DNA from: a virus
Taxonomy: Duplodnaviria > Heunggongvirae > Uroviricota > Caudoviricetes
DNA: 55,118 nucleotides
Virus record (IMG/VR): IMGVR_UViG_2563366941_000007
Location: 1-55,118 of that record
Reading direction: 5' to 3' (one strand)
Both the position numbers and the translations under genes were made by a program. Below are positions 4,326 through 29,571 of this stretch, in pieces. The notes below the pieces were generated by a model. It was not told the origin of the DNA. It searched no databases and worked only from the letters and a program-made list of their open reading frames with translations. The number at the start of each line of letters is the position of its first letter. The stretch's first letter is position 1.

Positions 4326-4328
4326 CCC

Positions 4329-4357
4329 ACAAAAAAGCCCGCCTGAACCGGCGGGCT
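4329..4357 (-). terminator. Rho-independent terminator-like hairpin downstream of lom
   Basis: GC stem AGCCCGCC/GGCGGGCT with a T-run on the minus strand. Confidence 0.45.
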
Positions 4358-4383
4358 GTCATAACACTGTGTTACCTGGCTAA

Positions 4384-8611: not shown

Positions 8612-9283
8612 TCAGCGACCAATCACCACAACCTGACCACCGTCCCCTTCGTCTGCCGTGCTGATCTCCTGAGAAACCACGCGAGACCCCACGCGCATTT
8701 CCCCGTACAGAACAGGCAGAACATTGCCCTGGGCAACCATGTTATCCAGTGAGGAGAAATAGGTGTTCTGCTTACCGTTATCCGTTGTCTGTGTACGGGG
8801 AGTTCTGGCTTTCGGTGCCAGCATCTGCGCCACACCACCGAGCACCATACTGGCACCGAGAGAAAACAGGATGCCGGTCATACCACCGGTCCCAATGGCT
8901 GCCCCCCATGCTGCAAGGGTGGCTCCGGCGGTAAAGAATGATCCGGCAATGGCGGCAGCCCCCAGGACAATCTGGAATACGCCACCTGACTTGGCCCCGG
9001 CGACTCTGGGAACAATATGAATCACAGCGCCATCAGGCAGAGTCTCATGTAACTGCGCCGTTAACCCGGACGTGCTGACGTCCCGCCCGGCAATCCGTAC
9101 CTGATACCAGCCGTCGCTCAGTTTCTGACGAAACGCCGGGAGCTGTGTGGCCAGTGCCCGGATGGTTTCAGCCCCCGTTTTCACACGAAGGTCGATGCGG
9201 CGACCAAATCGTTGTAAATCCCCGTAAAGGCAGATGCGCGCCATGCCCGGTGACGCCAGAGGGAGTGTGTGCGTCGCTGCCAT
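8612..9283 (-). CDS. I: Tail tip assembly protein I
   Basis: 223-aa ORF matching lambda gpI; position between K and J. Start may instead be the GTG at 9186 overlapping the K stop. Confidence 0.85.
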   Translation of the reverse strand: MAATHTLPLASPGMARICLYGDLQRFGRRIDLRVKTGAETIRALATQLPAFRQKLSDGWYQVRIAGRDVSTSGLTAQLHETLPDGAVIHIVPRVAGAKSGGVFQIVLGAAAIAGSFFTAGATLAAWGAAIGTGGMTGILFSLGASMVLGGVAQMLAPKARTPRTQTTDNGKQNTYFSSLDNMVAQGNVLPVLYGEMRVGSRVVSQEISTADEGDGGQVVVIGR

Positions 9284-10964: not shown

Positions 10965-13522
10965 CGTCCACCTCCGGAGAACAGGCCACCATCACGCATC
11001 TGTGTCTGAATTTCATCACGGGCACCCTTGCGGGCCATGTCATACACCGCCTTCAGAGCAGCCGGACCTATCTGCCCGTTCGTGCCGTCGTTGTTAATCA
11101 CCACATGGTTATTCTGCTCAAACGTCCCGGACGCCTGCGACCGGCTGTCTGCCATGCTGCCCGGTGTACCGACATAACCGCCGGTGGCATAGCCGCGCAT
11201 CAGCCGGTAAAGATTCCCCACGCCAATCCGGCTGGTTGCCTCCTTCGTGAAGACAAATTCACCACGGTGAACAATCCCCGCTGGCTCATATTTGCCGCCG
11301 GTTCCCGTAAATCCTCCGGTTGCAAAATGGAATTTCGCCGCAGCGGCCTGAATGGCTGTACCGCCTGACGCGGATGCGCCGCCACCAACAGCCCCGCCAA
11401 TGGCGCTGCCGATACTCCCGACAATCCCCACCATTGCCTGCTTAAGCAGAATTTCTGTCATCATGGACAGCACGGAACGGGTGAAGCTGCGCCAGTTCTG
11501 CTCACTGCCGGTCAGCATCGCCGCCATATTCTGTGCAATACCATCAAAGGTCTGCGTGGCTGCACTTTTTACCTGCGACATACTGTCCGTGGCGCTCTCT
11601 TCCCACTCACTCCAGCCGGACTTCAGGCCTGCCATCCAGCTCCCGCGAAGCTGGTCTTCAGCCGCCCAGGTCTTTTTCTGCTCTGACATGACGTTATTCA
11701 GCGCCAGCGGATTATCGCCATACTGTTCCTTCAGGCGCTGTTCCGTGGCTTCCCGTTCTGCCTGCCGGTCAGTCAGCCCCCGGCTTTTCGCATCAATGGC
11801 GGCCCGTTTTGCCCGTTGCTGCTGTGCGAATTTATCCGCCTGCTGCGCCAGCGCGTTCAGGCGCTCCTGATACGTAACCTTGTCGCCAAGTGCAGCCAGC
11901 TGGCGTTTGTACTCCAGCGTCTCATCTTTATGCGCCAGCAGGGATTTCTCCTGTGCAGACAGCTGGCGACGTTGCGCCGCCTCCTCCAGTACCGCGAACT
12001 GACTCTCCGCCTTCCACAAATCCCGGCGCTGCTGGCTGATTTTCTCATTTGCTCCGGCATGCTTCTCCAGCGTCCGGAGTTCTGCCTGAAGCGTCAGCAG
12101 GGCAGCATGAGCACTGTCTTCCTGACGATCGCCCGCAGACACCTTCACGCCGGACTGTTTCGGCTTTTTCAGCGTCGCTTCATAGTCCTTTTTCGCCGCC
12201 GCCATCAGCGTGTTGTAATCTGCCTGCAGAATTTTCCCGTCCTTCAGTGCCTTGTTCAGTTCTTCCTGACGGGCGGTATATTTCTCCAGCGGCGTCTGCA
12301 GGCGTTCGTAAGCCTTCTGCGCCTCTTCGGTATATTTCAGCCGTGATGCTTCGGTATCACTCTGCTGCTGCGCATTTTTGTCCTGTTGAGTCTGCTGTTC
12401 AGCCTTCTTTCGGGCGGCTTCAAGCGCAAGACGGGCCTTTTCACGATCATCCCAGTAACGCGCCCGCGCTTCATCGTTAACAAAATAATCATCCTTGCGC
12501 AGATTCCAGATGTCGTCCGCTTTCTTAAACGCTGCTTCGGCTTTCTCCAGCATTTCCTGAGCGGTATCAGGACGACCAATATCCAGCACCGCATCCCACA
12601 TGGATTTGAATGCCCGTGCTGTATTGCCTGCCCAGGTCTCCAGCGTGCCCATGTTCTCTTTCAGGCGGCGGGTCTGGTCATCAAACCCCTGTGTTGCGGC
12701 CTCGTTCGCCGCCTGCAATGCCCCGGCTTCATCGCCGGAACGCTGCAACTGAGCAACATACGCAATCTGCTCCGCCGTCACGTTATGGAACTGGCGTGCC
12801 ATCGCCGTCAACCCCGACGTCGGGTCTGTGGTCAGCTTCCCGAAGGCTTCAGCGACCTTGTCCACCTCCACACCGGATGCAGAGGAGAAACGCGCCACAC
12901 TCTGGCTGATGGACGCAATCTGAGCCTCACCGCTTACTCCCGCCTTAACCAGTGCGCTGAGTGACTCGCTGGTCTGGTTAAACGTCAGCCCTGCCGCCTG
13001 CCCGGCTCTGGACAGGACCAGCATGCGATCTGCCGTCAGACCCGACTGATTGCCGGAAAGGACCAGCGTTTTGTTGAAATCGGACAGGGTTGAGTTGCCC
13101 TGATACCAGGCATACGCCAGCGCACCGGTCGCCACCGCCAGCGAGGTGGCCCCCACCATCGGCAGGGTGATCGCACCGGCAAGCCCCCGGAACATGGGGA
13201 TCATCCCGCCGAAGGAGTCCTTCACCTGACCCCTCTGTTGCAGCAGGATCAGCCACGGACTTTGCCCGCCTGCAAGCTGCGTGGCCACGTCAGTGAACTG
13301 CGCAGGCAGCATACGCATGGCGGCTTTATACTGCCCGACGGAAATTCCCGCTTTCTGTGCAGCCAGCGCCTGCCGGTTCATCGACTGTTCAACGACTGCC
13401 GCTGTTTTTTTCGCATCACTTTCCGTACCGGAAAAATGACGCCTGACTCTGGCCATCTGCTCGTCAAATCTGGCCGCATCCAGACTCAAATCAACGACCA
13501 GATCGCCTACCGGTTCAGCCAT
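10961..13522 (-). CDS. H: Tail tape measure protein H
   Basis: 853-aa ORF matching lambda gpH (MAEPVGDLVVDLSLDAARFDEQMARVRRHF...). Confidence 0.95.
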   Translation of the reverse strand: MAEPVGDLVVDLSLDAARFDEQMARVRRHFSGTESDAKKTAAVVEQSMNRQALAAQKAGISVGQYKAAMRMLPAQFTDVATQLAGGQSPWLILLQQRGQVKDSFGGMIPMFRGLAGAITLPMVGATSLAVATGALAYAWYQGNSTLSDFNKTLVLSGNQSGLTADRMLVLSRAGQAAGLTFNQTSESLSALVKAGVSGEAQIASISQSVARFSSASGVEVDKVAEAFGKLTTDPTSGLTAMARQFHNVTAEQIAYVAQLQRSGDEAGALQAANEAATQGFDDQTRRLKENMGTLETWAGNTARAFKSMWDAVLDIGRPDTAQEMLEKAEAAFKKADDIWNLRKDDYFVNDEARARYWDDREKARLALEAARKKAEQQTQQDKNAQQQSDTEASRLKYTEEAQKAYERLQTPLEKYTARQEELNKALKDGKILQADYNTLMAAAKKDYEATLKKPKQSGVKVSAGDRQEDSAHAALLTLQAELRTLEKHAGANEKISQQRRDLWKAESQFAVLEEAAQRRQLSAQEKSLLAHKDETLEYKRQLAALGDKVTYQERLNALAQQADKFAQQQRAKRAAIDAKSRGLTDRQAEREATEQRLKEQYGDNPLALNNVMSEQKKTWAAEDQLRGSWMAGLKSGWSEWEESATDSMSQVKSAATQTFDGIAQNMAAMLTGSEQNWRSFTRSVLSMMTEILLKQAMVGIVGSIGSAIGGAVGGGASASGGTAIQAAAAKFHFATGGFTGTGGKYEPAGIVHRGEFVFTKEATSRIGVGNLYRLMRGYATGGYVGTPGSMADSRSQASGTFEQNNHVVINNDGTNGQIGPAALKAVYDMARKGARDEIQTQMRDGGLFSGGGR

Positions 13523-16903: not shown

Positions 16904-17694
16904 TTACGCCAGTTGAACGGACACGAACTCATCAGGATCAGCCAGCAGCATCAGCGGTGCTGACTGAATCATGGTGAACTCTCGCGCCGGATCGCCGGAT
17001 GTCTTCCAGTTTTTCGGATAACGGGGAGACGCATTAATACCCTCACTCAATGCATCCGCATCCTGAATACAGCCATAGGTGCGCAGACCGCGTGCATGAG
17101 TGTTACCCAGCACCATCGTGTTGTCCGGCAGGAAGTTCTTTTTGACGCCGTTTTCCACGTACTGTCCGGAATACACGACGATGGCCACATCTCCATACAT
17201 TCCCTTATAAGACACCGCTTTGCCCAGGTCTTTTACCGCTGTCTCCAGTTCGGAATGAGAGCCGCGACGGGTATCCAGCTTCTCCCTGACGGCTTTGAAG
17301 GAACGGAACAGCGCCCAGCCTTTCGGATCAAACACGATGATATTCACCACGCCGCTGGCGTTCAGCGCGTAGGCTTCGATATCGTCGGTCGGATCATACG
17401 TGGACTTGTCACGCTTGCTCCACTCCGTGCCGCCGGACTGCGTGATGTTGTTGGCCGCACTGCGGCCCATATCCACCTCAACCGGATCGAAGGCTTCACC
17501 AGTCATGGTGTATTTGCCCTTGAGCACGGCAGAAACGGCCTGCATCTCTTCGACCTGAGCAATGGCCAGCTCTTCGTCACGCATGTTCTGCATGATGATG
17601 CGACGGCGGCGGTAAGCCGGGTCCGCCAGATTCTGCGGATCTTCATCCGGCAGGCGACGCAGGGTCATCTGCGGATTCACCTCATGCTTGGGTT
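16904..17694 (-). pseudogene. E: Major capsid protein E, C-terminal fragment (codons from ...KPKHEVNPQMTLRRL to the stop)
   Basis: Translation matches about 260 C-terminal residues of lambda gpE; the N-terminal 91 codons lie 11.6 kb away at 29261..29536. Confidence 0.9.
17685..17694. repeat. 10-bp direct-repeat core TGCTTGGGTT, left copy (element/E junction)
   Basis: Identical 10-mer at 29292..29301; both sit exactly where E homology breaks. Confidence 0.8.
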
Positions 17695-17766
17695 ACATGA
17701 GTCAAATATGAAAGGAACTGAATGATTTTTAATGAAATAAATGGCTCTCTCTATCAAAATACAGCT

Positions 17767-17792
17767 AAAAAGCAATACACGTAGCAATACAG
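17767..17792. repeat. Tandem GCAATACA(N) motifs (AAAAAGCAATACACGTAGCAATACAG), candidate integrase arm-type sites, left end
   Basis: Near-identical motif AAAAAGCAATACAAGCTGCAATACAG at 29139..29164 at the opposite end of the element. Confidence 0.45.
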
Positions 17793-17821
17793 CGCTTCGC
17801 AAAGGTATGTCACTATATCTA

Positions 17822-18790
17822 CTAGTGCCAACCAGAATACGAATATCTTTGCTTTGCTTCTTCTGGGCTCATACCCACTAGTAAAGATACTAATTCAAAG
17901 TCAGGTTGTGGAATTGGAATCAATGCAGCCAAATATGCTGGCTTATTGAGAACAATTGTTGATAATTTAGCTTTATTCACCTTAGATAACTCAATATTAC
18001 TTTCCGCTACCTTCGGGAACTCCATAATAAATGAATCAATTTCCCTTATGAGATAATCGATCAACGCCACTATACTTTCTGTCAAATCAATATATTTTGA
18101 CAACTCACTAGCACCAATTTCTTTCTTTATTTCATCCAATTTAATTTCAAACACTGGCTTGTCTTTACTGGCAATATTAGACAAACGTTTCTTTAAATCT
18201 GAATCAAGCTGATTCCTGACAATTAAACTTTTCAAAACAAAATTATAATTAAACAAAAAAGCATCAATTCGAGCAATATTCCTCCATGACTTTCCAATTT
18301 CTTCATCTGACGGCATAATAAGTTCATGTTTTAGTATCTTGTACTTAATAAAAAAAACAAACCTCTCAAATAGAGATTTATTAGCTGTGGGTATCTTTTT
18401 TATAAATGAAAGACGGCTAATATCGAAATTTACCTCCCCGGCGTTAAATAAAAATTCATTTATTGCCAGCGCTCTTAATATTGGATTTCTAGATCTCAAA
18501 CCAATATAACTACTTTTAATTCCCACAAGTGTATTTATCATCTGAAAAGAAACCATCATAAGCGTATTAGCAGAATTAAATTTCTCCGTTTCTATTTTAA
18601 TCTTCTCCTGCCTATTATTGATGCAATAAGCAGTTAAGCCTCCCATAAGCGCCGATAAAAAAGATAATGCAATAGGGAATACATAATCTTTTGTATAATC
18701 AACATCTGCTTTCAACATTAGTATTGCTTTAGCAATCAAAACTGCATCAGGGGTCATGTTAGAGCCGTCATTAAAAATTAAACACAACAC
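17822..18790 (-). CDS. Hypothetical membrane-anchored protein (N-terminal TM segments plus ~250-aa soluble domain), AT-rich cargo gene
   Basis: 322-aa ORF in a conspicuously AT-rich segment; hydrophobic stretches AVLIAKAILML and VFPIALSFLSALMGGLTAYCI near the N-terminus; no recognisable family by eye. Confidence 0.55.
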   Translation of the reverse strand: MLCLIFNDGSNMTPDAVLIAKAILMLKADVDYTKDYVFPIALSFLSALMGGLTAYCINNRQEKIKIETEKFNSANTLMMVSFQMINTLVGIKSSYIGLRSRNPILRALAINEFLFNAGEVNFDISRLSFIKKIPTANKSLFERFVFFIKYKILKHELIMPSDEEIGKSWRNIARIDAFLFNYNFVLKSLIVRNQLDSDLKKRLSNIASKDKPVFEIKLDEIKKEIGASELSKYIDLTESIVALIDYLIREIDSFIMEFPKVAESNIELSKVNKAKLSTIVLNKPAYLAALIPIPQPDFELVSLLVGMSPEEAKQRYSYSGWH

Positions 18791-19454
18791 CCATAAAATA
18801 TAACAGCTTATTGTTTAGAAAAGCAATATCATACACTCTATGATAAGCGTAATATCTGACAGGCATGGTGTGTTACGACACTTAATTAAACGTAATTTGC
18901 TAAAATTTTACACACAGAATCACACCAGGCTCTAACTCTCCTTTCATTACAATTGTAAGCATACAATTATCCTACCAGAACTTTATTGTTGAGCTCTCCC
19001 TTTTGAGCCCATCCCATAATGAATTGACGAAAGAACCGTATCTGTGGAGTAATCATTTCTGCGCGGTTCTATGTCGAAGACAAAATGTGGTATGCGCATC
19101 TAGTCAGAGGGAAAGCAATTTTTCAGGGAAATATCATCTCTACATGGTTAAAACAACCAGAAGAAGTTATCAAGCAAGTTGGGTATGAAGATTTTCCTAT
19201 AATAGTAACGAAACGGGTTTCACCTGAGCGGTTGTGTTCGATCCGCCACAATACGCATAGGATGCCCTGTAATCCGTATTCTGCTTACTCAACAGCTTAC
19301 CAGCAGGACTCGTAAGGCTGTTGCGATAGTGCAGAAGTAGGCCACGACCATAAAGTGAAGCCAGTGGCGCGTTATCGACTACTTTAGTGTAGAGCCTGAT
19401 TTCAACGCAAGCATGAGAGTTTTTTCTGGCGATAGGCCGTGACAAACAGCAACA

Positions 19455-19675
19455 AAATCAGAGAAAGGAAACGGCAGAGGCCAAAAAGCCCGTTTTCAGC
19501 GCCTGTCATTTCCTTTCTTTTCAGGGGGTATTTTAAATAAAAACATAAAGTTACGGCAAAGAAGAACGGAAAAGCCTTAAACCGGAAAATTTCCATAAAT
19601 AGAGAAAAACTGCGCGCCTGACGCCCCGTAACGTTCTGGATCGCCGGAAAGGACCCGCCAGCCAGAGCGGGCCCT
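19455..19675. other. cos-like packaging site of the satellite (cosB R-site and IHF-site homologs; divergent cosN)
   Basis: Aligns base-for-base with much of the prophage cos region 35480..35720 (e.g. GAAAGGAAACGRCAGAGGCC, TTTCCTTTCTTTTCAGGGGGTATTTTAAATAAAAACAT, CCTTAAACCGGAAAATTT); differs at about 5 positions within the cosN-equivalent segment. Confidence 0.75.
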
Positions 19676-19682
19676 AATTTCA

Positions 19683-20066
19683 TCAACCAATCAGCTTATA
19701 GCGACCATCCCGTGCATTGCGGCGTACACGCTCAATCTTGAGGCATAGCGCCGCATCTGGCTTTTTTGGGACAGGTACGCGGCAATATTCAGAAGCGCGA
19801 GGAATATTATTTATCCAGTCGATCACTTCACTTAAATACCAGGCCTTACGCCCTTCCGTAACCTGCACACGCTCCGGGAACTCTCCACTAGCCTCAAGGT
19901 TTAGCAGTGTACGACGACTCAGGGTTGTAATTTCCATCACCTGATTCATATCAACAAGGCGCTCGCTTAAACACATTTTGTCAGCGATAGCTTTTAATTC
20001 CTCTACAGCTGGATTCGGGTACATCATTTCGGCAATTGGCTTAAGGTCATTGTAATCATTCTGCAT
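19683..20066 (-). CDS. AlpA/Nu1-like HTH protein next to cos; candidate packaging-redirection (Rpp-like) or regulatory protein
   Basis: 127-aa ORF with HTH-like segment MEITTLSRRTLLNLEASGEFPERVQVTEGRKAWYLSEVIDWI; functional call is inference from position beside cos. Confidence 0.45.
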   Translation of the reverse strand: MQNDYNDLKPIAEMMYPNPAVEELKAIADKMCLSERLVDMNQVMEITTLSRRTLLNLEASGEFPERVQVTEGRKAWYLSEVIDWINNIPRASEYCRVPVPKKPDAALCLKIERVRRNARDGRYKLIG

Positions 20067-20077
20067 TGTATCCCCCT

Positions 20078-20419
20078 TTACACACGAGCCAGCGGCTGAA
20101 CAGAAATACCTGAGCCAACAAACGCTGCAACCTTTACTGACAGTTCTTTAACAGACTCAGGCCAGTTCAGAGCATCAACATTTAAGACACCTGTCTTATA
20201 GACCTGAGCCTGTGTTTTTTTCGCGGTGTCGATTTGTACAGCGGAAACATAAACCGCTTTACCTACGCTCGAACCATCCCATACCACCAGTGCACCTGTT
20301 GCATCTTCCTGCATCAGTGGCGTAAATGCAGGAATTACCCCTTTATTAGCTGAAAATATCCCCAGCGTAGTCACCAGTGCTTCAGTGCCAGCCATGAGTT
20401 CAGTGTAATGAGTAGCCAT
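20078..20419 (-). CDS. Head decoration protein, divergent homolog of lambda gpD
   Basis: 113 aa; shares PLM...VVWDGS...YKTG...WPE...AAFVGSGISV pattern with gpD (PLML...VAWDGT...YKSG...WPE...[10 protein letters not shown]). Confidence 0.7.
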   Translation of the reverse strand: MATHYTELMAGTEALVTTLGIFSANKGVIPAFTPLMQEDATGALVVWDGSSVGKAVYVSAVQIDTAKKTQAQVYKTGVLNVDALNWPESVKELSVKVAAFVGSGISVQPLARV

Positions 20420-20428
20420 TGCTCCCCC

Positions 20429-21469
20429 TTAGCCAATGCGAACGGTAACAAAACGATTGATGCGGGCCGGTATTGGCTGTGGTGCTGAATGTGTCTGCAC
20501 ATATTCAATAGCCGGATCACCAGGCACAATATAGTTTTTCGGTGCAAGTTCGGCTTTAGTCAGCCCCATTCGGATTAGCTCCGGATCCTGAATACCGCCA
20601 TAGGCGACAATCCCCTGAAGAGCCGTATTGCCAAGCACCATCAAATCAGGATCAAGGAAATGTTTTTCTGTTCCGTCCTCGTCGGTATAACGCCCGCTGT
20701 AAACAACAATCGCAACATCGCCCATATACCCTTTAAAACTCACCGAATCACCAAGGTCTTTAAGGGCCGTTTCCAGTTCGGAATTAGAACCACGACGGGT
20801 ATCCAAAGCCTCTTTTATCGCTCTGAATGAACGGTATTTCTTCCATACATTACCACCCATAATGATGATATTAGTGACGCCCTCACTAAATTCTGCGTAG
20901 CTCTCAATATCATCATTTGGATCAAAAGTTTCTTTATCCTTACCTGACCACTCAGTACCGCCAGACTGAGTGATGATATTTTGTGGTTTTATATTCCAGT
21001 CCAGCTCATAACGTTCAATACCATCGCCCTCAATGATATTTTTCCCCGTTGTGATTGCCTGAACAGCAAGCCATTCAATACGTGCACGAATAGCTTTAGC
21101 CTGATTTACAATCGCCTGTTTAACTTTAATATTACGCGCCCCAAAAGCATTGTATTGCTCAGGTGACACACCAACAGGGCGCACAGCTAACTTATTTGGA
21201 TCAATGCTGCTTTTCGGCTTCATATAACCTGGACGAATTGTTTTTGATTCGTATCCCTCATCTCGTGAAACTTTACTGCCCACCATAGGAGAGCAAAACG
21301 CCGCGATCGGGATATTTGGATCGTCGATCGTATCAAGAATAATGTCTCTCGATTCAAACATTACCGAGCGAGTGAAAAACAAACTGGTAAACAACGCATT
21401 TAATTTTTTTTGTACATCTACAGCATTAACCACCTGTACAAGCTGAGTAGGCGAATATAAATCAACCAT
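20429..21469 (-). CDS. Major capsid protein, divergent homolog of lambda gpE
   Basis: Shares PGYMKPK, QSGGTEWS, DTRRGSNSELETALKDLG, GDVAIVVYSG, MVLGNT blocks with gpE; start at 21469 is preceded by AAGAGGA. Confidence 0.8.
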   Translation of the reverse strand: MVDLYSPTQLVQVVNAVDVQKKLNALFTSLFFTRSVMFESRDIILDTIDDPNIPIAAFCSPMVGSKVSRDEGYESKTIRPGYMKPKSSIDPNKLAVRPVGVSPEQYNAFGARNIKVKQAIVNQAKAIRARIEWLAVQAITTGKNIIEGDGIERYELDWNIKPQNIITQSGGTEWSGKDKETFDPNDDIESYAEFSEGVTNIIIMGGNVWKKYRSFRAIKEALDTRRGSNSELETALKDLGDSVSFKGYMGDVAIVVYSGRYTDEDGTEKHFLDPDLMVLGNTALQGIVAYGGIQDPELIRMGLTKAELAPKNYIVPGDPAIEYVQTHSAPQPIPARINRFVTVRIG

Positions 21470-21751
21470 ACGCATCCTCTTTGCATTCATTAAAAATAAT
21501 TGTGGATATATGCTATCACCGATATTTGTCATGCGAACACATGCAACCGAGTGCAATGTTGTATAAAGTTTTGGGGTGACAACTTCAGTGCGGACAATTA
21601 GTGTTAATATCTTCACTCCCTTTGGTCGGGATTTATGTAGCATGCCGGAAAATTTATTTTTTCCGGCCTTTTTTTATTGGCAATATTTAAAACGGGGGTG
21701 ATGCTGCCAACTTACTGATTCAGTGTATGATGGTGTTTTTGAGGTGCTCCA

Positions 21752-22027
21752 GTGGCTTCTGTTTCTATCAGCTGTCCCTCCTGTTCAGCTACTGACGGGG
21801 TGGTGCGTAACGGCAAAAGCACCGCCGGACATCAGCGCTATCTCTGCTCTCACTGCCGTAAAACATGGCAACTGCAGTTCACTTACACCGCTTCTCAACC
21901 CGGTACGCACCAGAAAATCATTGATATGGCCATGAATGGCGTTGGATGCCGGGCAACAGCCCGCATTATGGGCGTTGGCCTCAACACGATTTTACGTCAC
22001 TTAAAAAACTCAGGCCGCAGTCGGTAA
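21752..22027 (+). CDS. insA: IS1 InsA
   Basis: 91-aa [43 protein letters not shown]... Confidence 0.95.
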
Positions 22028-22449
22028 CCTCGCGCATACAGCCGGGCAGTGACGTCATCGTCTGCGCGGAAATGGACGAACAGTGGGGCTATGTCGGGGC
22101 TAAATCGCGCCAGCGCTGGCTGTTTTACGCGTATGACAGGCTCCGGAAGACGGTTGTTGCGCACGTATTCGGTGAACGCACTATGGCGACGCTGGGGCGT
22201 CTTATGAGCCTGCTGTCACCCTTTGACGTGGTGATATGGATGACGGATGGCTGGCCGCTGTATGAATCCCGCCTGAAGGGAAAGCTGCACGTAATCAGCA
22301 AGCGATATACGCAGCGAATTGAGCGGCATAACCTGAATCTGAGGCAGCACCTGGCACGGCTGGGACGGAAGTCGCTGTCGTTCTCAAAATCGGTGGAGCT
22401 GCATGACAAAGTCATCGGGCATTATCTGAACATAAAACACTATCAATAA
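21946..22449 (+). CDS. insB: IS1 InsB reading frame (InsAB' transposase made by -1 frameshift)
   Basis: ORF ...[50 protein letters not shown]... typical of IS1 InsB. Confidence 0.9.
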
Positions 22450-22463
22450 GTTGGAGTCATTAC

Positions 22464-22913
22464 CTAAAACGGGATATCATCTCCCCATTGCTCATTATCT
22501 CCCACTGGTGGCTGGCTTCCTTGCTGATCTGCCTGTTGTTTTGCTCTGTTCAGTGCGTCAGTAGCCTGCCCCTGTTGGCCTTTATTGCCGCCCGGTCGCA
22601 CCGATCGCGCACTGATTACGCTGTCTGCGATAACCTGCCAGCCCTGCCGCGTTTCGCCGTTCTGTCCAGTCCACTGGCTCATCTGCATGTTACCCGCCAC
22701 GCTCAGGAGTTCGCCTTTGTGATGCTTTGCCAGCGCGTCGGCTTGTCTGCCAAACGCCAGGACAGATAACCACATCGTCGCCTGACCGTCATCCGACTGA
22801 CTGCAGGGCAGTGATACCGCCATACGCGCCAACGTCATGGGGGTGCCCTTGCTGGTCTGTTTTGTCTGCGGGTCGTCCACCGACCGCCCGTAAACTGATA
22901 TTTGCGCCGTCAT
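22464..22913 (-). CDS. Single-stranded DNA-binding protein (SSB-like)
   Basis: 149-aa ORF with OB-fold-like core and acidic C-terminal tail ending DDIPF; the present stop codon TAG is formed by the last base of IS1 plus the target duplication. Confidence 0.7.
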   Translation of the reverse strand: MTAQISVYGRSVDDPQTKQTSKGTPMTLARMAVSLPCSQSDDGQATMWLSVLAFGRQADALAKHHKGELLSVAGNMQMSQWTGQNGETRQGWQVIADSVISARSVRPGGNKGQQGQATDALNRAKQQADQQGSQPPVGDNEQWGDDIPF

Positions 22914-23155
22914 GCGGCCTGCTCTCCGGACTTAATATTGATTGTTGTCACTTCCTCCGCTTCAGCAATCTCCCGTTCGGTCAGAGTGGCAAAGTTTGCA
23001 GCCGCCGTTGTCATGAATGCGCTAATCAGTTCGGGATGTGCTTTCGCGTATCCTTCCCCGGCGTTGCGGTCGATGATTTTTATCGACACCCTTAACCAGT
23101 ATTCCGTCAAATCAAGGGCGTGCGATTGTGATTTTTTTGTGTGCTTCGCTGTCAT
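22910..23155 (-). CDS. Hypothetical protein (81 aa) upstream of ssb
   Basis: ORF with overlapping ATGA junction to ssb; no recognisable family. Confidence 0.4.
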   Translation of the reverse strand: MTAKHTKKSQSHALDLTEYWLRVSIKIIDRNAGEGYAKAHPELISAFMTTAAANFATLTEREIAEAEEVTTINIKSGEQAA

Positions 23156-23205
23156 AGGCTTTATCTCACAGCAGTAAATTAAAATTTTTGCGTTTTAACC
23201 CTTCA

Positions 23206-23430
23206 TCTGTTCACCTTTTGATATTTTCTCTTTTAATTCATAATGTTAATGGGTAAACAGTTTCACAAAAACTATTCACCAACTGTTCACCACTGTTCAC
23301 CCTTGAAGCTCAATAAACAATCAAAAAGGTGAACAGTGAATAGTTTGGTGAACAGTTCATAAATAACTGTTCACCCTATAATATACTGATATAAAAGATA
23401 TTTATGACAGGGTGAACAGTGGTGAACAGT
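23206..23430. repeat. Iteron cluster (about 9 copies of GGTGAACAGT / ACTGTTCACC in both orientations): candidate replication origin
   Basis: Repeats read directly at 23206, 23272, 23282, 23292, 23328, 23347, 23367, 23411, 23421; AT-rich spacers; immediately 3' of the rep gene. Confidence 0.7.
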
Positions 23431-23442
23431 TATTCCATAAGT

Positions 23443-25263
23443 TTAATTTTTGCTATCGTCATTAGTGACCGATACACATGATGGCATCCAGTCTTCTGAT
23501 TCCTCCGTCAGTGTCACGTTTGAACGCAAACCGTGCTTCGTTTTCCGTTTCATATACTCCCTGCCATATTCCGCCATTGCCCCCGGCATATCTTTACCGA
23601 AGCGCGTCAGTGTTACAGGTTTACCAAACCCATGTGCCCTCATATAAGCCAGATAGGCATGATAGAGATACCTGCGTGGGCTGAATGGCACAATTTCAGC
23701 ATTACCCACTAACAGGCCATCACACATTACCGATGCCATGAGATAGCCGCAGAAGTCCACCAGCGAATCCCCCTCTCGCTTTATCGCCAGTGCTTCTTCA
23801 GATTTCTGCTGCTCATATAACAGGCGTCTGGCTTCGTCCTGATCAGCAAACCGTGTAAGCAGATGACGAATCACTACCGCCAGCTCACCTTCTATTTTTT
23901 CCGCCAGCATCGAATCGCGTTCGTTCTCCGGTACAACTTCCGAAAAATTGAATATCACCCGACGACGTGAGATCCCCCCGCTGCGGTCACTGAATGACAT
24001 GGCGTTATTGTTAACCGCCAGCACTACTGCCGGAATACGCGTTGAATAGGGGGCTTTGTGTTTCGGGTCAATTGCCACCTTGTCACCGCCTGTAATGGCC
24101 TTAATCCCTGCCCCATCACCAGCGTAGCGGGTCATATCCGGCATGATAATCAGCGAAAAGCCAACCACTAACGCACGTTCCCTTGCATCTTCCAGCGCCT
24201 TCATGCTTGCTGATACTGTATTAGCCTTACCCGCCAGCATGGTGCAAATCTCCGCCATCACACTTTTACCACTTCCCCCCGGCCCTGTTACCTCAATGAA
24301 TAACTGCCAGTCGTACCGGTTCGCCAGCACCATGAATAATGCCGCCAGTACGCGATCTGCCTTGCGGTCATTCTCAGCCACCGAACGGCGCAACCACTTC
24401 CAGAAATTCGGCGCATGTGTTGCCAGCGTTTCCCCCTCTGCTGGTGGGCTGAAAGGTAATTCACTGGCAATTAACAACCAGTCGTTTTTGTTATGCTCCC
24501 GAAAATTACCAGTTCTGGTATCAAATACCCCGTTACTGAATCCAATCAGGTTACGGGCTGTATTCCCCATTACAGGCAAACTTAACTTCATGGTATCTAC
24601 CGCCGATTTAATAGCGTTCTGCGAATAGCTGATCTCCGCATCAATGAAAATCTGCGCCATAGCACGCTGTAACTCTTTATCCTGAACCGGCTCCCATACA
24701 ACGCCGTTGTAATGATGAACGGTGTCAGAGTCGGCATTGATTGCCAGTTCACCGCCATAATGTGCAAGGAGAACTTCACCGCGCTGGCTGGCCCCCATCT
24801 GATTCAACGCCAAAGATGAAGCACGCTCGTCATTTTTGCGCTCTGCCTTCTTCACTGGCAGTTCAATCACCAGACTTTCCCCATGCTCCGCTTCAGCTTT
24901 TAGGCCGACAAGGCGCGGAGTCCAGTCTTCAGGCTCTCGATCAACAAAGCTACGGTAACAACGTGCTTCCTTTACGCCTGCAATAGCAAGTAATGTCGCA
25001 ACCTTCGTCAGACTTTTCTCTGCAATCTTTCCGGCACGATAAACACGCACATAATGACGGCCTTCATCGATAATTTGCATATCATCCAGGTTTTCCAGTT
25101 GTTCCGTACCCAGAATGACTGGTGGTGTATCATCTGCTGCAATATGCTTACCTGCCCATTCATTCCATTCTTTTGCATGGCTCCAGGCATCACTGCCAGC
25201 AAAAATGATGACTTCCGTCATTTTGTCGCGCGGTTGGTATTTTAAGTTCGGAGCACGTTTCAT
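23443..25263 (-). CDS. Replication initiator, P4-alpha/D5-type SF3 helicase family (primase-helicase-like)
   Basis: 606-aa ORF with Walker A GPGGSGKS and surrounding D5/SF3-helicase-like sequence; adjacent to the iteron cluster. Confidence 0.7.
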   Translation of the reverse strand: MKRAPNLKYQPRDKMTEVIIFAGSDAWSHAKEWNEWAGKHIAADDTPPVILGTEQLENLDDMQIIDEGRHYVRVYRAGKIAEKSLTKVATLLAIAGVKEARCYRSFVDREPEDWTPRLVGLKAEAEHGESLVIELPVKKAERKNDERASSLALNQMGASQRGEVLLAHYGGELAINADSDTVHHYNGVVWEPVQDKELQRAMAQIFIDAEISYSQNAIKSAVDTMKLSLPVMGNTARNLIGFSNGVFDTRTGNFREHNKNDWLLIASELPFSPPAEGETLATHAPNFWKWLRRSVAENDRKADRVLAALFMVLANRYDWQLFIEVTGPGGSGKSVMAEICTMLAGKANTVSASMKALEDARERALVVGFSLIIMPDMTRYAGDGAGIKAITGGDKVAIDPKHKAPYSTRIPAVVLAVNNNAMSFSDRSGGISRRRVIFNFSEVVPENERDSMLAEKIEGELAVVIRHLLTRFADQDEARRLLYEQQKSEEALAIKREGDSLVDFCGYLMASVMCDGLLVGNAEIVPFSPRRYLYHAYLAYMRAHGFGKPVTLTRFGKDMPGAMAEYGREYMKRKTKHGLRSNVTLTEESEDWMPSCVSVTNDDSKN

Positions 25264-25526
25264 TTGTTACCTCCGGCAACTAACATTGCCCGAATTTTAC
25301 GGATATAGCCTGCGGCACGCCTCTGATTATCTGTCTTGCAATTTTTTACCAGAATGAAATCTCTTTCGAACTGCTGACGCGGCATAACACATTCAAAATC
25401 ATAACCATCACGCAAATAAGAGACACGACGATCATCAACCGAAATAATCTTTACCCGATAGCCATAGCTGTCTTTGAAAATATCCCCAAGGCTGATTTTT
25501 GAATGAGTGGATTTGACCGCTGGCAA
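25260..25526 (-). CDS. Hypothetical protein (88 aa), translationally coupled to rep
   Basis: ORF with ATGA overlap to the rep start. Confidence 0.4.
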   Translation of the reverse strand: MPAVKSTHSKISLGDIFKDSYGYRVKIISVDDRRVSYLRDGYDFECVMPRQQFERDFILVKNCKTDNQRRAAGYIRKIRAMLVAGGNK

Positions 25527-25554
25527 TAAAGCCAGAAAATTTATTTTTCATTTT

Positions 25555-25779
25555 TTATTCTCCGGTATAGCTCTGGTCGTGTATTTTTATAGCTTCATCC
25601 AGCTCTTTGATGACAGGATCAAGTAACGTAATTAACGCTCCAGCTAAATTAGCATCCCGTTCATCGTGTTCCGCATTTGTTGTCCCATCAAGCCAGGTTG
25701 ATAAGATTTCTCGCATATTTTTGCCACAAACGAGCGCGTTTTCAGCATGTGTCAGCACTTTAAAATAAAGATCATTCAT
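25555..25779 (-). CDS. Hypothetical protein (74 aa)
   Basis: ORF in the same operon orientation; overlaps the upstream ORF by 8 nt. Confidence 0.4.
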   Translation of the reverse strand: MNDLYFKVLTHAENALVCGKNMREILSTWLDGTTNAEHDERDANLAGALITLLDPVIKELDEAIKIHDQSYTGE

Positions 25780-25975
25780 GGCACACCTCCTGACGAATAC
25801 GGGCGGCGAATATCATCACGTAGCCAGTTGGGGATTGCAGCCGGGCTTCCTGTTCGCTGGCGGCCTCGATGGTAATCACGCGCGGTTGTGCCGTACTCAG
25901 GGCGATAAAACGCCAGATGTATTTATTCAGGTTGTGCGGGTCCCGCCCTTGCGGGTGTGTGGTATGATTTCTCAT
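25772..25975 (-). CDS. Hypothetical protein (67 aa), first gene of the leftward replication operon
   Basis: Start at 25975 is preceded by GAGG at good spacing; the ORF track's longer 104-aa version is probably over-extended. Confidence 0.4.
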   Translation of the reverse strand: MRNHTTHPQGRDPHNLNKYIWRFIALSTAQPRVITIEAASEQEARLQSPTGYVMIFAARIRQEVCHE

Positions 25976-26010
25976 AGCTACCTCGATACTGTTGCTATCG
26001 TTGGTGGTTA

Positions 26011-26056
26011 GAAGCCCGTTGGTGTTCCTAGCACCTTCGGGCTTTGCTTTTTTAAG
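26011..26056 (+). terminator. Two-tier GC hairpin followed by a T-run (terminator-like or small RNA 3' end)
   Basis: GAAGCCCG...CGGGCTTT stem enclosing GGTG...CACC, followed by GCTTTTTT; no plus-strand gene upstream. Confidence 0.3.
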
Positions 26057-26068
26057 TGCCTCCGTGTT

Positions 26069-26118
26069 AAGGTGGTCACCTAACAATGAAAAGGCTAATT
26101 CAATAGGTGGTCACTTGT
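26069..26118. promoter_or_regulatory. Direct repeats AGGTGGTCAC (two copies ~36 bp apart) upstream of the RHH gene; candidate operator
   Basis: AAGGTGGTCACCTAACA at 26069 and AGGTGGTCACTTGTCAACG at 26105, in the divergent intergenic region. Confidence 0.35.
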
Positions 26119-26174
26119 CAACGATCAAACGCGATAAAAGTCCTAAGGGTGATGGGCAATCTCCACAATTCAGA

Positions 26175-26306
26175 ATGCGAATTTCTCCAGAGCTAAAAGA
26201 GCAATTCGACAAAGAAGCGCAGAGCGACGGCATAAGCCTAGCCAACTGGCTTAAAGAATTAGGGCGCAAAGAGCTGCTACGGCGCGGTATTGAACCAAAA
26301 GGATAA
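26175..26306 (+). CDS. Ribbon-helix-helix (Arc/CopG-like) DNA-binding protein
   Basis: 43-aa product MRISPELKEQFDKEAQSDGISLANWLKELGRKELLRRGIEPKG has an RHH-like strand-helix-helix pattern; start chosen inside the longer ORF 25992..26306. Confidence 0.5.
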   Translation: MRISPELKEQFDKEAQSDGISLANWLKELGRKELLRRGIEPKG

Positions 26307-26333
26307 GAATAATTGAAGTCAAGGAGCTAACAC

Positions 26334-26690
26334 ATGAAATACGAATTCTTCGCAACAAGTAGCAGTAGTTTGGATGTATACATAGTCACTGTATCAAACG
26401 ATTCTGGCTCTCTAATCATGACTTGTAATTGTCCAGCAGGAAGTAAAGGTATTCTATGTAGACACCGTAAAGCTTTAATTACCGGAAAAATCCGCGGTAT
26501 ATTCACTCCCCCAAGAAGGAATAATCCCGAAAAATTACAAGAAGCTATAAATTTAATAGCCACATATGGCATAGATAAAACATTAAAGTTGTACACTGAT
26601 GAGTTAGAACGAGCAGAACAGACTTGGATAAGTGTTCGCGATAATTTGAGAGCAATGATAAACGCTCTTGTTGAACCACCTAAATATTGA
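26334..26690 (+). CDS. Small SWIM-type zinc-finger protein (CxCx9CxH), AT-rich cargo gene
   Basis: 118 aa; motif MTCNCPAGSKGILCRH; strongly AT-rich coding sequence. Confidence 0.5.
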   Translation: MKYEFFATSSSSLDVYIVTVSNDSGSLIMTCNCPAGSKGILCRHRKALITGKIRGIFTPPRRNNPEKLQEAINLIATYGIDKTLKLYTDELERAEQTWISVRDNLRAMINALVEPPKY

Positions 26691-26821
26691 ACTGTTCACA
26701 TTGCCTATCAGGCGATAACCTCGTATTCTGATTAAGGCTAACTATATACTCACATTGGCGACCAATTCTGGTCGCCTTTATCTACCATTTTTATAATATC
26801 ATAGATTAAGAGTGTTAATCC

Positions 26822-27676
26822 TTACCCCCTGAATGGAATTGATGAGGATTTAATTTCCACAGAACCAAATCCTCTTGAATCCAAAAACATTTTTATACCA
26901 GCCTCAATAAAATCATAATCGCTTGTCGGGCCAATTGTAATGCTTTTAATTGGTAACTTTCTATTATCTTTATTATTAATAATGATATAAGGGATGATAC
27001 CATTATTATTTATTCTAAATTTCACATCTGGCATTTGTATCCACGGAGTAAACACCAGTCTAAATTCATTTTCTTCGATAAAACTAGGATGTTTAAAAAA
27101 TGGGATATATTTAGATATAAATTGATACGTAGAGACCATTGTTACAAAATGATCATTCATTTCTTTAATGTTAATACCATTACAAGAAAAAAACTCATCC
27201 AACTCCTTACTCATCTTTGTAATATCGTCATTATTTGAATATATAACATCATGTGCAACACAATTTAAATAAATATTTTGACAAAAACTCACAAGTTCAT
27301 CCGCATCAAATTCAATGCAAACGCCCTGTTTATTTCCGTAACCTCTCCACTGACTTAACTTATCGTTTTCTTTACAAAAAGATATGCTATAAACATGTTT
27401 ATCAATCCCTTTTTCTTTTTGTAACTTCCCTTTCTCATACATGTCAAGAGACTTGAGCAAAATAGTTTTCTTATCTTTTGGGATGATATTATCATCAACT
27501 ATTTTAATTGTATTTCGAAAACATTCACATCCATGGTTAGACTCCTCTTTATCATTTAAGAAATATATATTTGTAGCCCATAAAGAATTAGAGTCTAATA
27601 TACCTTTCAAACCAAAAAGATCTGTATAATGAAATATAGCCACAATGCCCCACCTAATAGTTAAGTCGTTTCCCAC
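26822..27676 (-). CDS. DUF2971-like protein, AT-rich cargo gene (candidate defence-associated)
   Basis: 284 aa; N-terminal FHYTDLFGLKGILDSNSLWATNIYFLNDKEE fits the DUF2971 signature as recalled; AT-rich. Confidence 0.55.
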   Translation of the reverse strand: MGNDLTIRWGIVAIFHYTDLFGLKGILDSNSLWATNIYFLNDKEESNHGCECFRNTIKIVDDNIIPKDKKTILLKSLDMYEKGKLQKEKGIDKHVYSISFCKENDKLSQWRGYGNKQGVCIEFDADELVSFCQNIYLNCVAHDVIYSNNDDITKMSKELDEFFSCNGINIKEMNDHFVTMVSTYQFISKYIPFFKHPSFIEENEFRLVFTPWIQMPDVKFRINNNGIIPYIIINNKDNRKLPIKSITIGPTSDYDFIEAGIKMFLDSRGFGSVEIKSSSIPFRG

Positions 27677-27891
27677 TCACCTCGAATCCATGCCTGCACT
27701 TCTGAAAGACGATATGCAACAGCAGTGGAACCAATCTTGATCCGCTTAGGAAATTTTCCTTCCTTCTCCAGCTTCCAGCGTGTGCTGTTCGCAAGAGTGG
27801 TTAGCTCCCGACATTCTTTCTCACGGATCATACGATCGATGTTAGGAATGTACTCCAGACCCTTTTTATCAACAATTGCCATTTTTTTCAT
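27661..27891 (-). CDS. alpA: AlpA-family transcriptional regulator/excisionase-like HTH protein
   Basis: 76 aa; ...LTTLANSTRWKLEKEGKFPKRIKIGSTAVAYRLSEVQAWIRG matches the AlpA (CP4-57 regulatory) family; adjacent to int. Confidence 0.75.
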   Translation of the reverse strand: MKKMAIVDKKGLEYIPNIDRMIREKECRELTTLANSTRWKLEKEGKFPKRIKIGSTAVAYRLSEVQAWIRGEWETT

Positions 27892-27892
27892 G

Positions 27893-29128
27893 TTAACCAG
27901 CCTTTTGTTTGAGGATTGTCACTTTTGAATCAGCACCTGCGATGCTATTGAGATATGTAGTCCAGAGTTCCAGAGCATCCAGTTTTTTAGCCATAAACTT
28001 ACTCCGGTTGTAAACACCCGCCACGCCAGGTAGCGCATGGCCTAACAGTTGTTCTACTACATAAAATTCAACACCGAGATCACTTAGATGAGTAGATAGC
28101 GTTCTTCTAAGGTCGTGTAGTGACCATTGTTTTTCATGGCCCAAACGTTTACCGATTTTCCCCCCAATCTTGCTTACGCTTTCTCTAATTCGCAGACTTC
28201 CCAGCACATAACCAGTATGTCTTGTCTCTTCGTGAACATCCGTTACCCACTGTCGTAGAATTTCAGGTACTGGTCTGACGATTTCAACACCAGTTTTTGA
28301 GTGATCTTTTGGTACCGTCCAAACCCAACTTTCGAGATCCCATTCGCTCCATTCAGATAATCGGGCTTCACTCATTCGACATCCAAATACTGTACAAAGC
28401 ACAAACATTTTTCGCGTGTATTCAGACATTAGTTTTAAATCAGGCTCGACAAAAATTGCCTTCCAGAGCTGGCCCAGTTCGGCTTCATCCAGAACCCGAT
28501 CCCGCTTACCTGCAATCTGCCCCACATCACTCATGCGCAAATCCTTTAAAGCATCACATGTCGCGTACTGGCGTACCCGACAAAAACGAAGAGCTAATTT
28601 AGTGTCAGAAAAAACATACGCCGCCATAACTGGTGCATTACGTTTAATTCGGTCAAAACAGTCCAGCCATTCATATAGGTGAGTGTCATTTACAGGCAAA
28701 TGACCGATATAGGGAAAGATATGCTTTCGAAATCTGCCAAGCGTTACAGCATGAGTTTTACGACGCACCTTACAGTAATTTTCATACCAGTAATTTAGTG
28801 CATCCTCCACTGTGACCGGCTTTAAGCGTTCTTCAGCCTGAATCTTAATCTGGATACGCGGATCACGTTTGTCAGCCAACCAACCACGGCACTCGTCGCG
28901 CTTTTCCCTTGCCTGTTTGAGTGACATATCAGGATATTTACCCAACGTTAGCCAGACCGGAGCAGCCCGGCCACCTGCTAACCTGTAGAAGAAAACAAAG
29001 CTCACAGCCCCCTTGGTACTCACACGAATAGAAAGCCCCTTTCCATCAGCAATGGTGATCTGCTTTTCTCTGGGTTTCCCCAGATATCCTTTAAGCGCTT
29101 TGTCGCTCAGTTTGTTCTCGCCAGCCAT
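27893..29128 (-). CDS. int: Tyrosine integrase, P4-like family
   Basis: Start MAGENKLSDKALKGYLGKPREKQITIADGKGLSIRVSTKG... has a P4-integrase-like N-terminus; C-terminal HDLRRT...LLGH...Y catalytic-region motifs; sits at the element end. Confidence 0.85.
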   Translation of the reverse strand: MAGENKLSDKALKGYLGKPREKQITIADGKGLSIRVSTKGAVSFVFFYRLAGGRAAPVWLTLGKYPDMSLKQAREKRDECRGWLADKRDPRIQIKIQAEERLKPVTVEDALNYWYENYCKVRRKTHAVTLGRFRKHIFPYIGHLPVNDTHLYEWLDCFDRIKRNAPVMAAYVFSDTKLALRFCRVRQYATCDALKDLRMSDVGQIAGKRDRVLDEAELGQLWKAIFVEPDLKLMSEYTRKMFVLCTVFGCRMSEARLSEWSEWDLESWVWTVPKDHSKTGVEIVRPVPEILRQWVTDVHEETRHTGYVLGSLRIRESVSKIGGKIGKRLGHEKQWSLHDLRRTLSTHLSDLGVEFYVVEQLLGHALPGVAGVYNRSKFMAKKLDALELWTTYLNSIAGADSKVTILKQKAG

Positions 29129-29138
29129 TTTTAGCCCC

Positions 29139-29164
29139 AAAAAGCAATACAAGCTGCAATACAG
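29139..29164. repeat. Tandem GCAATACA(N) motifs (AAAAAGCAATACAAGCTGCAATACAG), candidate arm-type/operator sites, right end
   Basis: Matches the motif at 17767..17792; lies just upstream of the int start codon. Confidence 0.45.
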
Positions 29165-29260
29165 AGATGATTGCAACACACAGATAACGAGGAAAATTCA
29201 GTGAAAGCGCCAGATAAACTTATTCTTTATTATCAAAAGATTAAGTGTAAAAACCAGCAA

Positions 29261-29536
29261 CTACACGAAAGCCTCAGAAAGCCATGCTAAGTGCTTGGGT
29301 TTGACATATCCCGGCGTAAATTCAGAGGTGGAGCCGCCACGGGAGCGGATAACCTCACCGGAAACAATCGGCGAAACGTACAGCGCCATGTTTACCAGTC
29401 CCGGAATTTGTGAGAGATAGACTTTCTCCGTAGTGAAGGGATAGCTCTCACGGAAAAAGAGACGCAGAAACAGCGGATCAAACTTAAATTTCTGCTCATT
29501 TGCCGCCAGCAGTTGGGCGGTTGTGTACATCGACAT
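29261..29536 (-). pseudogene. E: Major capsid protein E, N-terminal fragment (91 codons) fused to 9 element-derived codons
   Basis: MSMYTTAQLLAANEQKFKFDPLFLRLFFRESYPFTTEKVYLSQIPGLVNMALYVSPIVSGEVIRSRGGSTSEFTPGYVKPKH then LAWLSEAFV-stop. Confidence 0.9.
29292..29301. repeat. 10-bp direct-repeat core TGCTTGGGTT, right copy (element/E junction)
   Basis: Identical to 17685..17694. Confidence 0.8.
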
Positions 29537-29555
29537 AAAAAAATCCCGTAAAAAA

Positions 29556-29571
29556 AGCCGCACAGGCGGCC
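29556..29571 (-). other. GC hairpin with minus-strand T-run between D and E (terminator/attenuator-like)
   Basis: GCCGC-ACAG-GCGGC stem flanked by an A-run on the plus strand. Confidence 0.3.

Follow-up and report, generated by a model that had tools for sequence, protein, structure and literature searches.

What reads the paired repeats that stand at both ends of a satellite lodged in a prophage capsid gene? The question is raised by a 55,118-nucleotide stretch of tailed-phage DNA (Caudoviricetes; IMG/VR record IMGVR_UViG_2563366941_000007, positions 1 to 55,118; hereafter the window), in which positions 17695-29301 are a helper-embedded phage-inducible chromosomal island (HE-PICI), a satellite that splits gene E of its lambda-like helper prophage. 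Four half-sites of the sequence GCAATACA, two on each arm of the attachment (att) site, are probably bound as arm-type sites by the integrase (Int) that the satellite itself encodes, as suggested by the way in which the motif changes together with the N-terminal domain of Int among related elements. The paired repeats, their spacing and the site group are already known, and binding by the arm domains of Int is the first hypothesis offered in the survey by Tommasini, Mageeney & Williams (2023; PMC10111431). What is added here to that paper is evidence on the binder, namely the Int arm domain, and a class-specific arm code, the wider value of which is modest. The features of the att region are as follows.

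17685..17694, no strand assigned: attL copy of the 10-bp identity block TGCTTGGGTT, the reverse complement of aacccaagca, coding for KPKH of the capsid protein gpE.
29292..29301, no strand assigned: attR copy of the identity block TGCTTGGGTT.
16904..17684, minus strand: 3' fragment of helper prophage gene E.
29302..29563, minus strand: helper prophage gene E (major capsid protein), 5' fragment, in the same orientation as the integrase gene int.
17772..17791, minus strand: distal (P'-arm-like) doubled motif, putatively arm-type; the plus strand reads GCAATACAcgtaGCAATACA, the int sense TGTATTGC-N4-TGTATTGC.
29144..29163, minus strand: int-proximal (P-arm-like) doubled motif, putatively arm-type; the plus strand reads GCAATACAagctGCAATACA.
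29172..29180, minus strand: TGCAACACA, a degenerate third copy on the core side of the proximal pair and 17 nt from it.

A sequence-only reading of the window had pointed out two near-identical 26-mers at these places, and both were found there: AAAAAGCAATACACGTAGCAATACAG at 17767-17792 on the left and AAAAAGCAATACAAGCTGCAATACAG at 29139-29164 on the right, joined by a repeat finder as one repeat family (D5) at 88% identity. The copies had been placed some 70-140 bp inside the att cores. Measured in the published way, from the edge of the 23-nt motif to the centre of the identity block, the left distance is 81.5 bp and the right one 131.5 bp. The right copy, noted as lying immediately upstream of the int start, ends 15 nt from the int ATG. 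The degenerate third copy is also present in the close relatives L127, L021, L031 and L108, while in other subgroups a full third copy lies between the pair and int.

It could be argued that the likeness of the two ends is due to chance, or is the functionless remnant of a duplication, given that the 8-mer is short; this is the sole point in favour of an explanation whose probability we consider practically negligible. The 8-mer occurs eight times in the window against 2.24 expected, a count reached by 0 of 100 shuffles, and the doubled form GCAATACA-N4-GCAATACA is present exactly twice in 55 kb, at 17772-17791 and 29144-29163, free of mismatches and both times on the plus strand. The search for additional copies proposed in the sequence-only reading revealed no further doubled copy in the window at up to 3 mismatches. 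Moreover, sequence and position are kept across integrases that are merely 47-56% identical. Single copies at 7783, 12620, 21151 and 41980 lie undoubled in coding sequence and were taken as chance occurrences. The att repeats are not replication iterons either, as the iterons are a different repeat (TGTTCACC family), located at 23268-23444 beside the primase gene.

The motif in the window is the one described for HE-PICIs, in which each element carries tgTGTATTGCantgTGTATTGCa twice in the same orientation, at distances of 81 +/- 2 bp and 132 +/- 2 bp to the centre of attP, the motif and its geometry being kept across elements with other cores; the site group of the present element, E_Phage_cap_E_80, has the identity block aacccaagca (PMC10111431). 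Both window copies match all 16 conserved bases of tgTGTATTGCantgTGTATTGCa, the window identity block is that of the site group, and the window attR matches an attR stretch in an excerpt of the supplement of the same paper. Thus sequence, co-oriented copies, 81/132 geometry, site group and identity block are the same, and nothing differs in the feature itself, the window element additionally carrying an IS1. In a literature search for the motif string, the HE-PICI paper was the sole relevant one among the matches listed, the others being mostly primers. The founder of the site group, Eco567.11capE of E. coli NRG857c, is an 11-kb PICI with a 10-bp identity block, residing in capsid gene E of an icd-integrated lambdoid prophage, and it excises precisely, with attB and attP formed about 2 h after induction (PMC10111431). 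The sequence-only reading had taken the repeats as support for a functional attL/attR pair, and in this founder the pair is indeed functional. The identity of the binder was left open, the candidates being the arm domains of an Int tetramer on the four half-sites, AlpA or an unknown protein, and the doubled motif was called unique to HE-PICIs (PMC10111431). The genes of Int and AlpA are as follows.

27893..29128, minus strand: int, a P4/PICI-type heterobivalent tyrosine integrase of 411 amino acids (Pfam PF13356, PF14659/PF22022 and PF00589).
28844..29128, minus strand: int codons 1-95, arm-type DNA-binding domain and proposed reader of the repeats.
27661..27891, minus strand: alpA, a PF05930 winged-helix protein, presumed excisionase/regulator.

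The int start codon (29126-29128, minus strand) is an internal ATG of the mechanically called open reading frame (ORF) 27893-29179 and agrees with where all homologues begin. Int belongs to a 99% identical cluster of 1098 members, and its arm domain matches PF13356 (E 4.1e-19) and has homologues of known structure in the arm-binding domains of the HAI7 and HPI integrases (PDB 3JU0, 3JTZ). In an AlphaFold2 model of Int with a mean predicted local distance difference test score (pLDDT) of 82.5, the arm domain consists of a helix (residues 9-15), four strands (24-29, 32-36, 42-48 and 58-65) and a second helix (70-85), the four-stranded sheet plus helix having a pLDDT of about 87-91.

To what extent the doubled layout is conserved was assessed in about 90 related loci. 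When viral contigs were scanned for the doubled pattern, 119 matches were obtained. Many of them were unrelated, for instance those on giant-virus contigs, in tandem arrays such as L078 and L118, and in L052, with a convergent recombinase, and these were set aside on a check for an adjacent int. About ten distinct int-proximal contexts were obtained, each with a P4-type int starting 12-53 nt from the pair, and overall the doubled motif was found upstream of int for 10 non-redundant viral-contig integrases and at 12 genome loci. Among these 10 integrases, mean pairwise identity is 67% in the arm domain, 46% in the core-binding domain and 48% in the catalytic domain. Complete elements with other cores (ATCGCCTTTA, TTTGGCT, ATGATGATCCA) keep the geometry, at 77-82 and 133-135 bp, distances that leave out L040, L067, L127, L148, L122 and L162, in which the identity block is imperfect or short.

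Homologues about 50% identical fall into two N-terminal types with equal core-binding and catalytic identity. The second type belongs to PICIs integrated at fis, which have an analogous doubled motif of 12-nt period in the same two places and with the same geometry, but of other sequences (GTGTATCAC, GGTGTAGTCT). Absence of the motif from related elements with the same integrase had been named in the sequence-only reading as evidence that would count against arm sites; instead, the motif is retained wherever the arm-domain type is the same, and elements of a different arm-domain type have another doubled motif in the same position. The comparison with arm sites of related integrases, also suggested there, revealed the same doubled layout in relatives, which the record of phage P4 annotates as attP arm repeats. 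A genome-wide scan with integrase alignment added 80 more loci. Of 86 loci, 78 have a doubled 9-mer with a 12-nt period in the 120 nt upstream of int, against 33 of 1720 shuffled controls, and the doubled motifs form at least seven sequence classes, the class-2 duplex being GTGTATCACgtgGTGTATCAC. Wherever the far end lay inside the fetched locus, a doubled motif of the same class was found at that end (8/8 elements), with no other doubled copy in about 21 kb.

The motif arrangement can also be seen across an intact attP. L381 (IMGVR_UViG_3300045988_152974; 1-420 and 10980-11098) is a terminally redundant viral contig of 11.1 kb with attP intact and int directly following; it is apparently a PICI in excised, packaged or circular form. 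The distance between its two GTGTAGTC pairs is 233 nt, compared to 235 nt when attP is reconstructed for the window element. In the high-G+C element L519 (reverse strand, about 3767-4400), which encodes a P4-type integrase, GTGGGGTAAG pairs lie 191 nt apart just upstream of int, and therefore the doubled 12-nt arm layout reaches well beyond Enterobacterales.

The segment that tracks the motif was sought by predicting motif class from protein similarity in 80 elements, scored as the area under the receiver operating characteristic curve (AUC) and as the nearest neighbour falling in the same class (n=79). Residues 1-70 of Int, the arm domain, gave an AUC of 0.988 and a nearest neighbour of the same class in 78 of 79 cases. 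For the core-binding domain the values were 0.73 and 66/79, for the catalytic domain 0.74 and 68/79, and for AlpA 0.83 and 52/79. Loci L125, L144, L175, L201 and L202 are unclassified, while L163, assigned to class 4 by hand, accounts for the one nearest-neighbour failure and was left out of the analysis of arm-domain positions alone. The positions that discriminate the classes (23-25, 30, 41, 47 and 54-58) lie mostly in or beside the modelled beta strands. Natural chimeras point in the same direction. Between L152 and L123, identity is 90% for the core-binding domain, 97% for the catalytic domain and 86% for AlpA, but only 54% for the arm domain, and the motifs of the two are different; in L147/L188, AlpA is identical over all 77 aligned columns and the motifs again differ (the far ends of both pairs lie outside the fetched loci). 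Taken together, the covariation and these apparent domain swaps favour the Int arm domain and point away from AlpA.

AlpA, the neighbouring excisionase or regulator, would nevertheless be an obvious candidate, and was left open as such in PMC10111431. Its gene adjoins int, and AlpA identity shows some association with motif class, as seen in the AUC above. Directionality factors of the AlpA family bind direct repeats in att arms, an example being TorI in KplE1; their sites, however, are typically on one arm. In the window the repeats are present on both. AlpA proteins that are 95-100% identical over the aligned columns accompany different motif classes (L147/L188, L146/L173 and L141/L162), whereas within the GCAATACA class AlpA identity drops to 39-49%. 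As the AlpA proteins of fis-site PICIs with different motifs are 48-57% identical to that of the window, those of the GCAATACA class are no closer. The nearest neighbour by AlpA predicts the class in only those 52 cases. A site sequence that co-varies with the recombination directionality factor (RDF), as expected of AlpA, Xis or TorI sites, was not what we found, different motif classes occurring with AlpA proteins 97-100% identical over the aligned columns, and binding by AlpA is highly improbable.

Alternatively, the reader of the repeats could be another protein, encoded by the satellite, by the helper phage or by the host; a late protein of the helper that times excision would be an example. 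The claimed uniqueness of the motif to helper-embedded satellites (PMC10111431) would fit such a helper-derived signal. Yet relatives that are not helper-embedded, namely fis-site PICIs and phage P4, share the doubled architecture and geometry with other sequences, and the window lacks the gene that separates int from alpA in fis-site PICIs. Elements of two to three motif classes occur together in single genomes, which argues against a host factor as the specific reader, three classes being possible in one host genome. Finally, the 5' end of int is the sole gene segment that tracks motif class, and a reader other than Int or AlpA is very unlikely.

The preferred explanation thus remains that the half-sites are bound by the Int arm domains. 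It agrees with the proposal of the sequence-only reading that the repeats are arm-type sites, and is supported by the PF13356 domain, the co-oriented repeats on both arms, the fixed geometry in relatives with other cores and the annotation of P4. As is characteristic of arm-type sites, the repeats are unrelated to the core, lie on both attP arms and keep fixed distances to the crossover. Several points weigh against it. No protein-DNA binding or mutational data for the motif were found in the literature searched. Because the motif and the arm-domain codons are physically close, with the proximal pair within about 100 bp of the codons and the distal pair only about 235 bp further in the circle, their co-inheritance could partly reflect linkage of one small module and not recognition. 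Nine of the loci were assigned to their classes by hand, phylogeny is not corrected for in the covariation statistics, and AlpA too is somewhat associated with motif class (AUC 0.83). In addition, 8 of the 86 loci have no clean 12-nt doubled motif, and distal copies were checked in 8 complete loci plus L381 only.

A broader proposal, which we put forward tentatively, is that Int residues 1-70 and the four half-sites constitute a small swappable specificity cassette with at least seven mutually orthogonal classes across P4/PICI-type integrases. Four motif classes share the fis 3' end, and up to three classes are found in one Xenorhabdus strain. If the proposal holds, satellites sharing a core or a genome would avoid cross-excision through differing arm codes, while the helper-embedded clade would have kept one arm code and re-targeted its core-binding domains to 14 prophage late-gene sites. 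The published uniqueness of the doubled motif to HE-PICIs would be corrected, and a natural parts list for orthogonal integrase/att pairs would become available; the comparison does suggest a set of naturally orthogonal pairs of arm sites and arm domains.

The fis-site elements provide further observations on the layout. A core at the fis 3' end (…GTTCATGCCGTA) is common to the PICIs L120, L121, L123 and L124, in their int upstream regions, and L198. PICIs with this same core carry four or five doubled arm motifs (GTGTATCAC, GGTGTAGTCT, GTGGGGTACA, TGTATAAAC and GTGTACAT), the core being constant and the arm code varying. In the Klebsiella fis-site PICI L122, two copies of the palindrome GTGATATCAC lie 21 nt apart just upstream of alpA (9132-9162). 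They contain the TATCAC core of the arm motif of L122, and may be an operator or a coincidence.

How the half-sites might serve recombination and int expression may involve two further elements between attR and int.

29231..29243, plus strand: exact match to the consensus of integration host factor (IHF), TATCAAAAGATTA (WATCAANNNNTTR), about midway between core and proximal repeats; a candidate site by consensus match only.
29222..29251, minus strand: sigma-70 promoter-like site TTTACA-18-AAGAAT, a 9/12 consensus match.

Among 73 non-identical arms, most have the IHF consensus at 0-1 mismatch and at a distance of 77-83 nt to the proximal motif, across motif classes; the short arm, inspected by eye only, showed no clear site. 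In the excised circle, attP as reconstructed from the window would consist of the distal pair, 81 bp, the core, 132 bp, the proximal pair, 15 nt and the int ATG, an intact attP being directly visible only in the related excised element. Judging from the integrase family, the C-terminal domains of an Int tetramer would bind and cut the core TGCTTGGGTT, and the covariation suggests that the four N-terminal arm domains (residues 1-95) would occupy the four half-sites. IHF, bound at its midway consensus, may bend the long arm such that the arm-bound and core-bound domains of one protein meet. After integration into a lambda-type gene E, attL would retain the distal pair, and attR the IHF site, the proximal pair and int. 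Helper late transcription can enter int because the 5' fragment of E is co-oriented with it, and read-through into int and alpA, suggested here as in the cis-regulatory reading of PMC10111431, could bring about late excision and restore E.

The proximal pair might also act in transcription. With the sole promoter-like element on one side of it and the int start codon on the other, it might allow Int to reduce transcription of its own gene, by analogy with P4 and KplE1. Such autoregulation stays an analogy: the match at 29251-29222, the single one upstream of int, does not overlap the repeats but is at least 58 nt upstream of them, and it brackets the IHF consensus. The scan gave this one weak site and established no promoter overlapping the repeats, and no terminator-like site was found on the minus strand at 28900-29400. 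One may go further and regard the proximal repeats as a mere operator or promoter element of int, devoid of any role in a recombination complex. Their position between promoter-like site and start codon is compatible with this, P4 Int and KplE1 IntS repress their own promoters via sites in the corresponding region, and in classes 4 and 5 a promoter-like element, TTGACG-17-CAnACT, abuts the repeats when read by eye. However, the same doubled motif is found at the far end, about 11 kb from int in the prophage, with no gene start beside it and at a fixed distance from the core, an arrangement that an operator alone would not require, and autoregulation is compatible with arm-type sites and not a replacement for them. 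A purely transcriptional role is therefore very unlikely.

A variant of the integrase is worth describing in this context. The 391-amino-acid protein P0004 has a lambda Nu1-like N-terminus (PF07471) on an integrase body 74% identical to the window Int in the core-binding and 88% in the catalytic domain, with the arm domain missing. It resembles the product of a fusion or deletion at a satellite that had entered the small terminase gene of its helper.

The remainder of the element conforms to a satellite of the published family. When positions 16904-17694 and 29302-29563 are joined across a single TGCTTGGGTT, an intact, in-frame lambda-type major capsid protein gpE results, and the insert amounts to 11.6 kb. 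No tRNA gene, considered as an integration target, is present in the window, and the target is gene E. The G+C content of 17695-29301 is 32-46% in most 1-kb windows, with 51-56% at IS1 and the primase gene, and 55-62% in the flanks. Apart from the tyrosine integrase and AlpA, the satellite encodes a D5-type primase-helicase (with iterons following its gene), a single-stranded DNA-binding protein (SSB) and its own homologues of lambda gpE and gpD, and has an inserted IS1. The int-attR segment was found in 179 of 5,426 complete E. coli genomes, and in all 29 full-length matches among the matches listed it adjoins an annotated 'major capsid protein'. As the insert is a complete satellite of this family with both att arms intact, it is probably still able to excise.

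The IS1 is complete (21697-22464, with the InsB ORF at 21946-22449), lies between the satellite capsid gene and ssb, and is 99.6% identical to the IS1 copies of P1 and SfIV. Among close relatives, the motif pairs are spaced by 10.5-11.4 kb, and because of this variation the window copy can be seen as a satellite with extra cargo, the IS1. Dense direct and inverted TGTTCACC / GGTGAACAG repeats at 23268-23444, directly downstream of the D5-type primase gene (23443-25263, minus strand), are likely the satellite replication origin and have no relation to the att repeats. The gpE homologue of the satellite (20429-21643, minus strand) has an N-terminus about 60 amino acids longer than helper gpE and retains PGYMKPK, the motif at the att core region of the helper gene, in diverged DNA sequence. 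Such divergence has been suggested to prevent self-integration (PMC10111431).

Accessory genes may be present in two places. Beside attL, in the kilobase of lowest G+C (32%), a 322-amino-acid ORF (17822-18790, minus strand) without a match in Pfam or PADLOC is a candidate accessory gene. The zone after alpA contains a SWIM zinc-finger ORF (26334-26690, plus strand) and a DUF2971 ORF (26822-27676, minus strand), with weak matches to the candidate defence families PDC-S62 and PDC-S31; PADLOC gave weak matches at most for the accessory ORFs.

Three characterised systems allow the doubled motif to be placed. In lambda, attP contains the arm-type sites P1, P2 and P'1-P'3 and the IHF sites H1, H2 and H'. 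The element in the window resembles it in having a heterobivalent integrase and, on both arms, arm sites that are separate from the core and would be brought to it by IHF bends. Lambda differs in the number of arm sites, five (2 + 3) compared to 2 + 2 plus a degenerate copy with a 12-bp period, and in its arm-domain family, and IHF in the window is suggested by the consensus match only. In KplE1 (CPS-53), P' arm sites of IntS overlap the mapped -10 box of the intS promoter, and repression has been measured (Panis et al. 2010, PMC2951348). KplE1 shares with the window an int beside the att site, arm-type sites between core and int ATG and an RDF of the AlpA/TorI kind, and is a precedent for negative autoregulation by Int, whereas the window promoter is a weak consensus match upstream of the repeats.

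The most similar architecture is annotated in phage P4 (NC_001609), where a pair of 12-nt 'attP arm sequence repeat' features lies 16 nt upstream of the int ATG, a second co-oriented pair lies across the core, a third single copy is near int, and Int has a PF13356 arm domain. The P4 repeat is GGGGGCA, in contrast to TGTATTGC in the window, the P4 pairs lie about 122 and 63 bp from the core centre compared to 132 and 81 bp, and the core is in a tRNA-Leu gene, not in a phage capsid gene. The two integrases are distant relatives, P4 Int being absent from the best 120 matches to the window Int. Because the P4 record annotates the same architecture and sequence variants occur in non-embedded relatives, the doubled motif, judged by this comparison, is not unique to HE-PICIs and appears to be the helper-embedded clade's own version of P4-type arm repeats. 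The HE-PICI motif would accordingly be one sequence variant of an architecture common to phage P4 and fis-site PICIs, for which binding and swap tests are directly designable.

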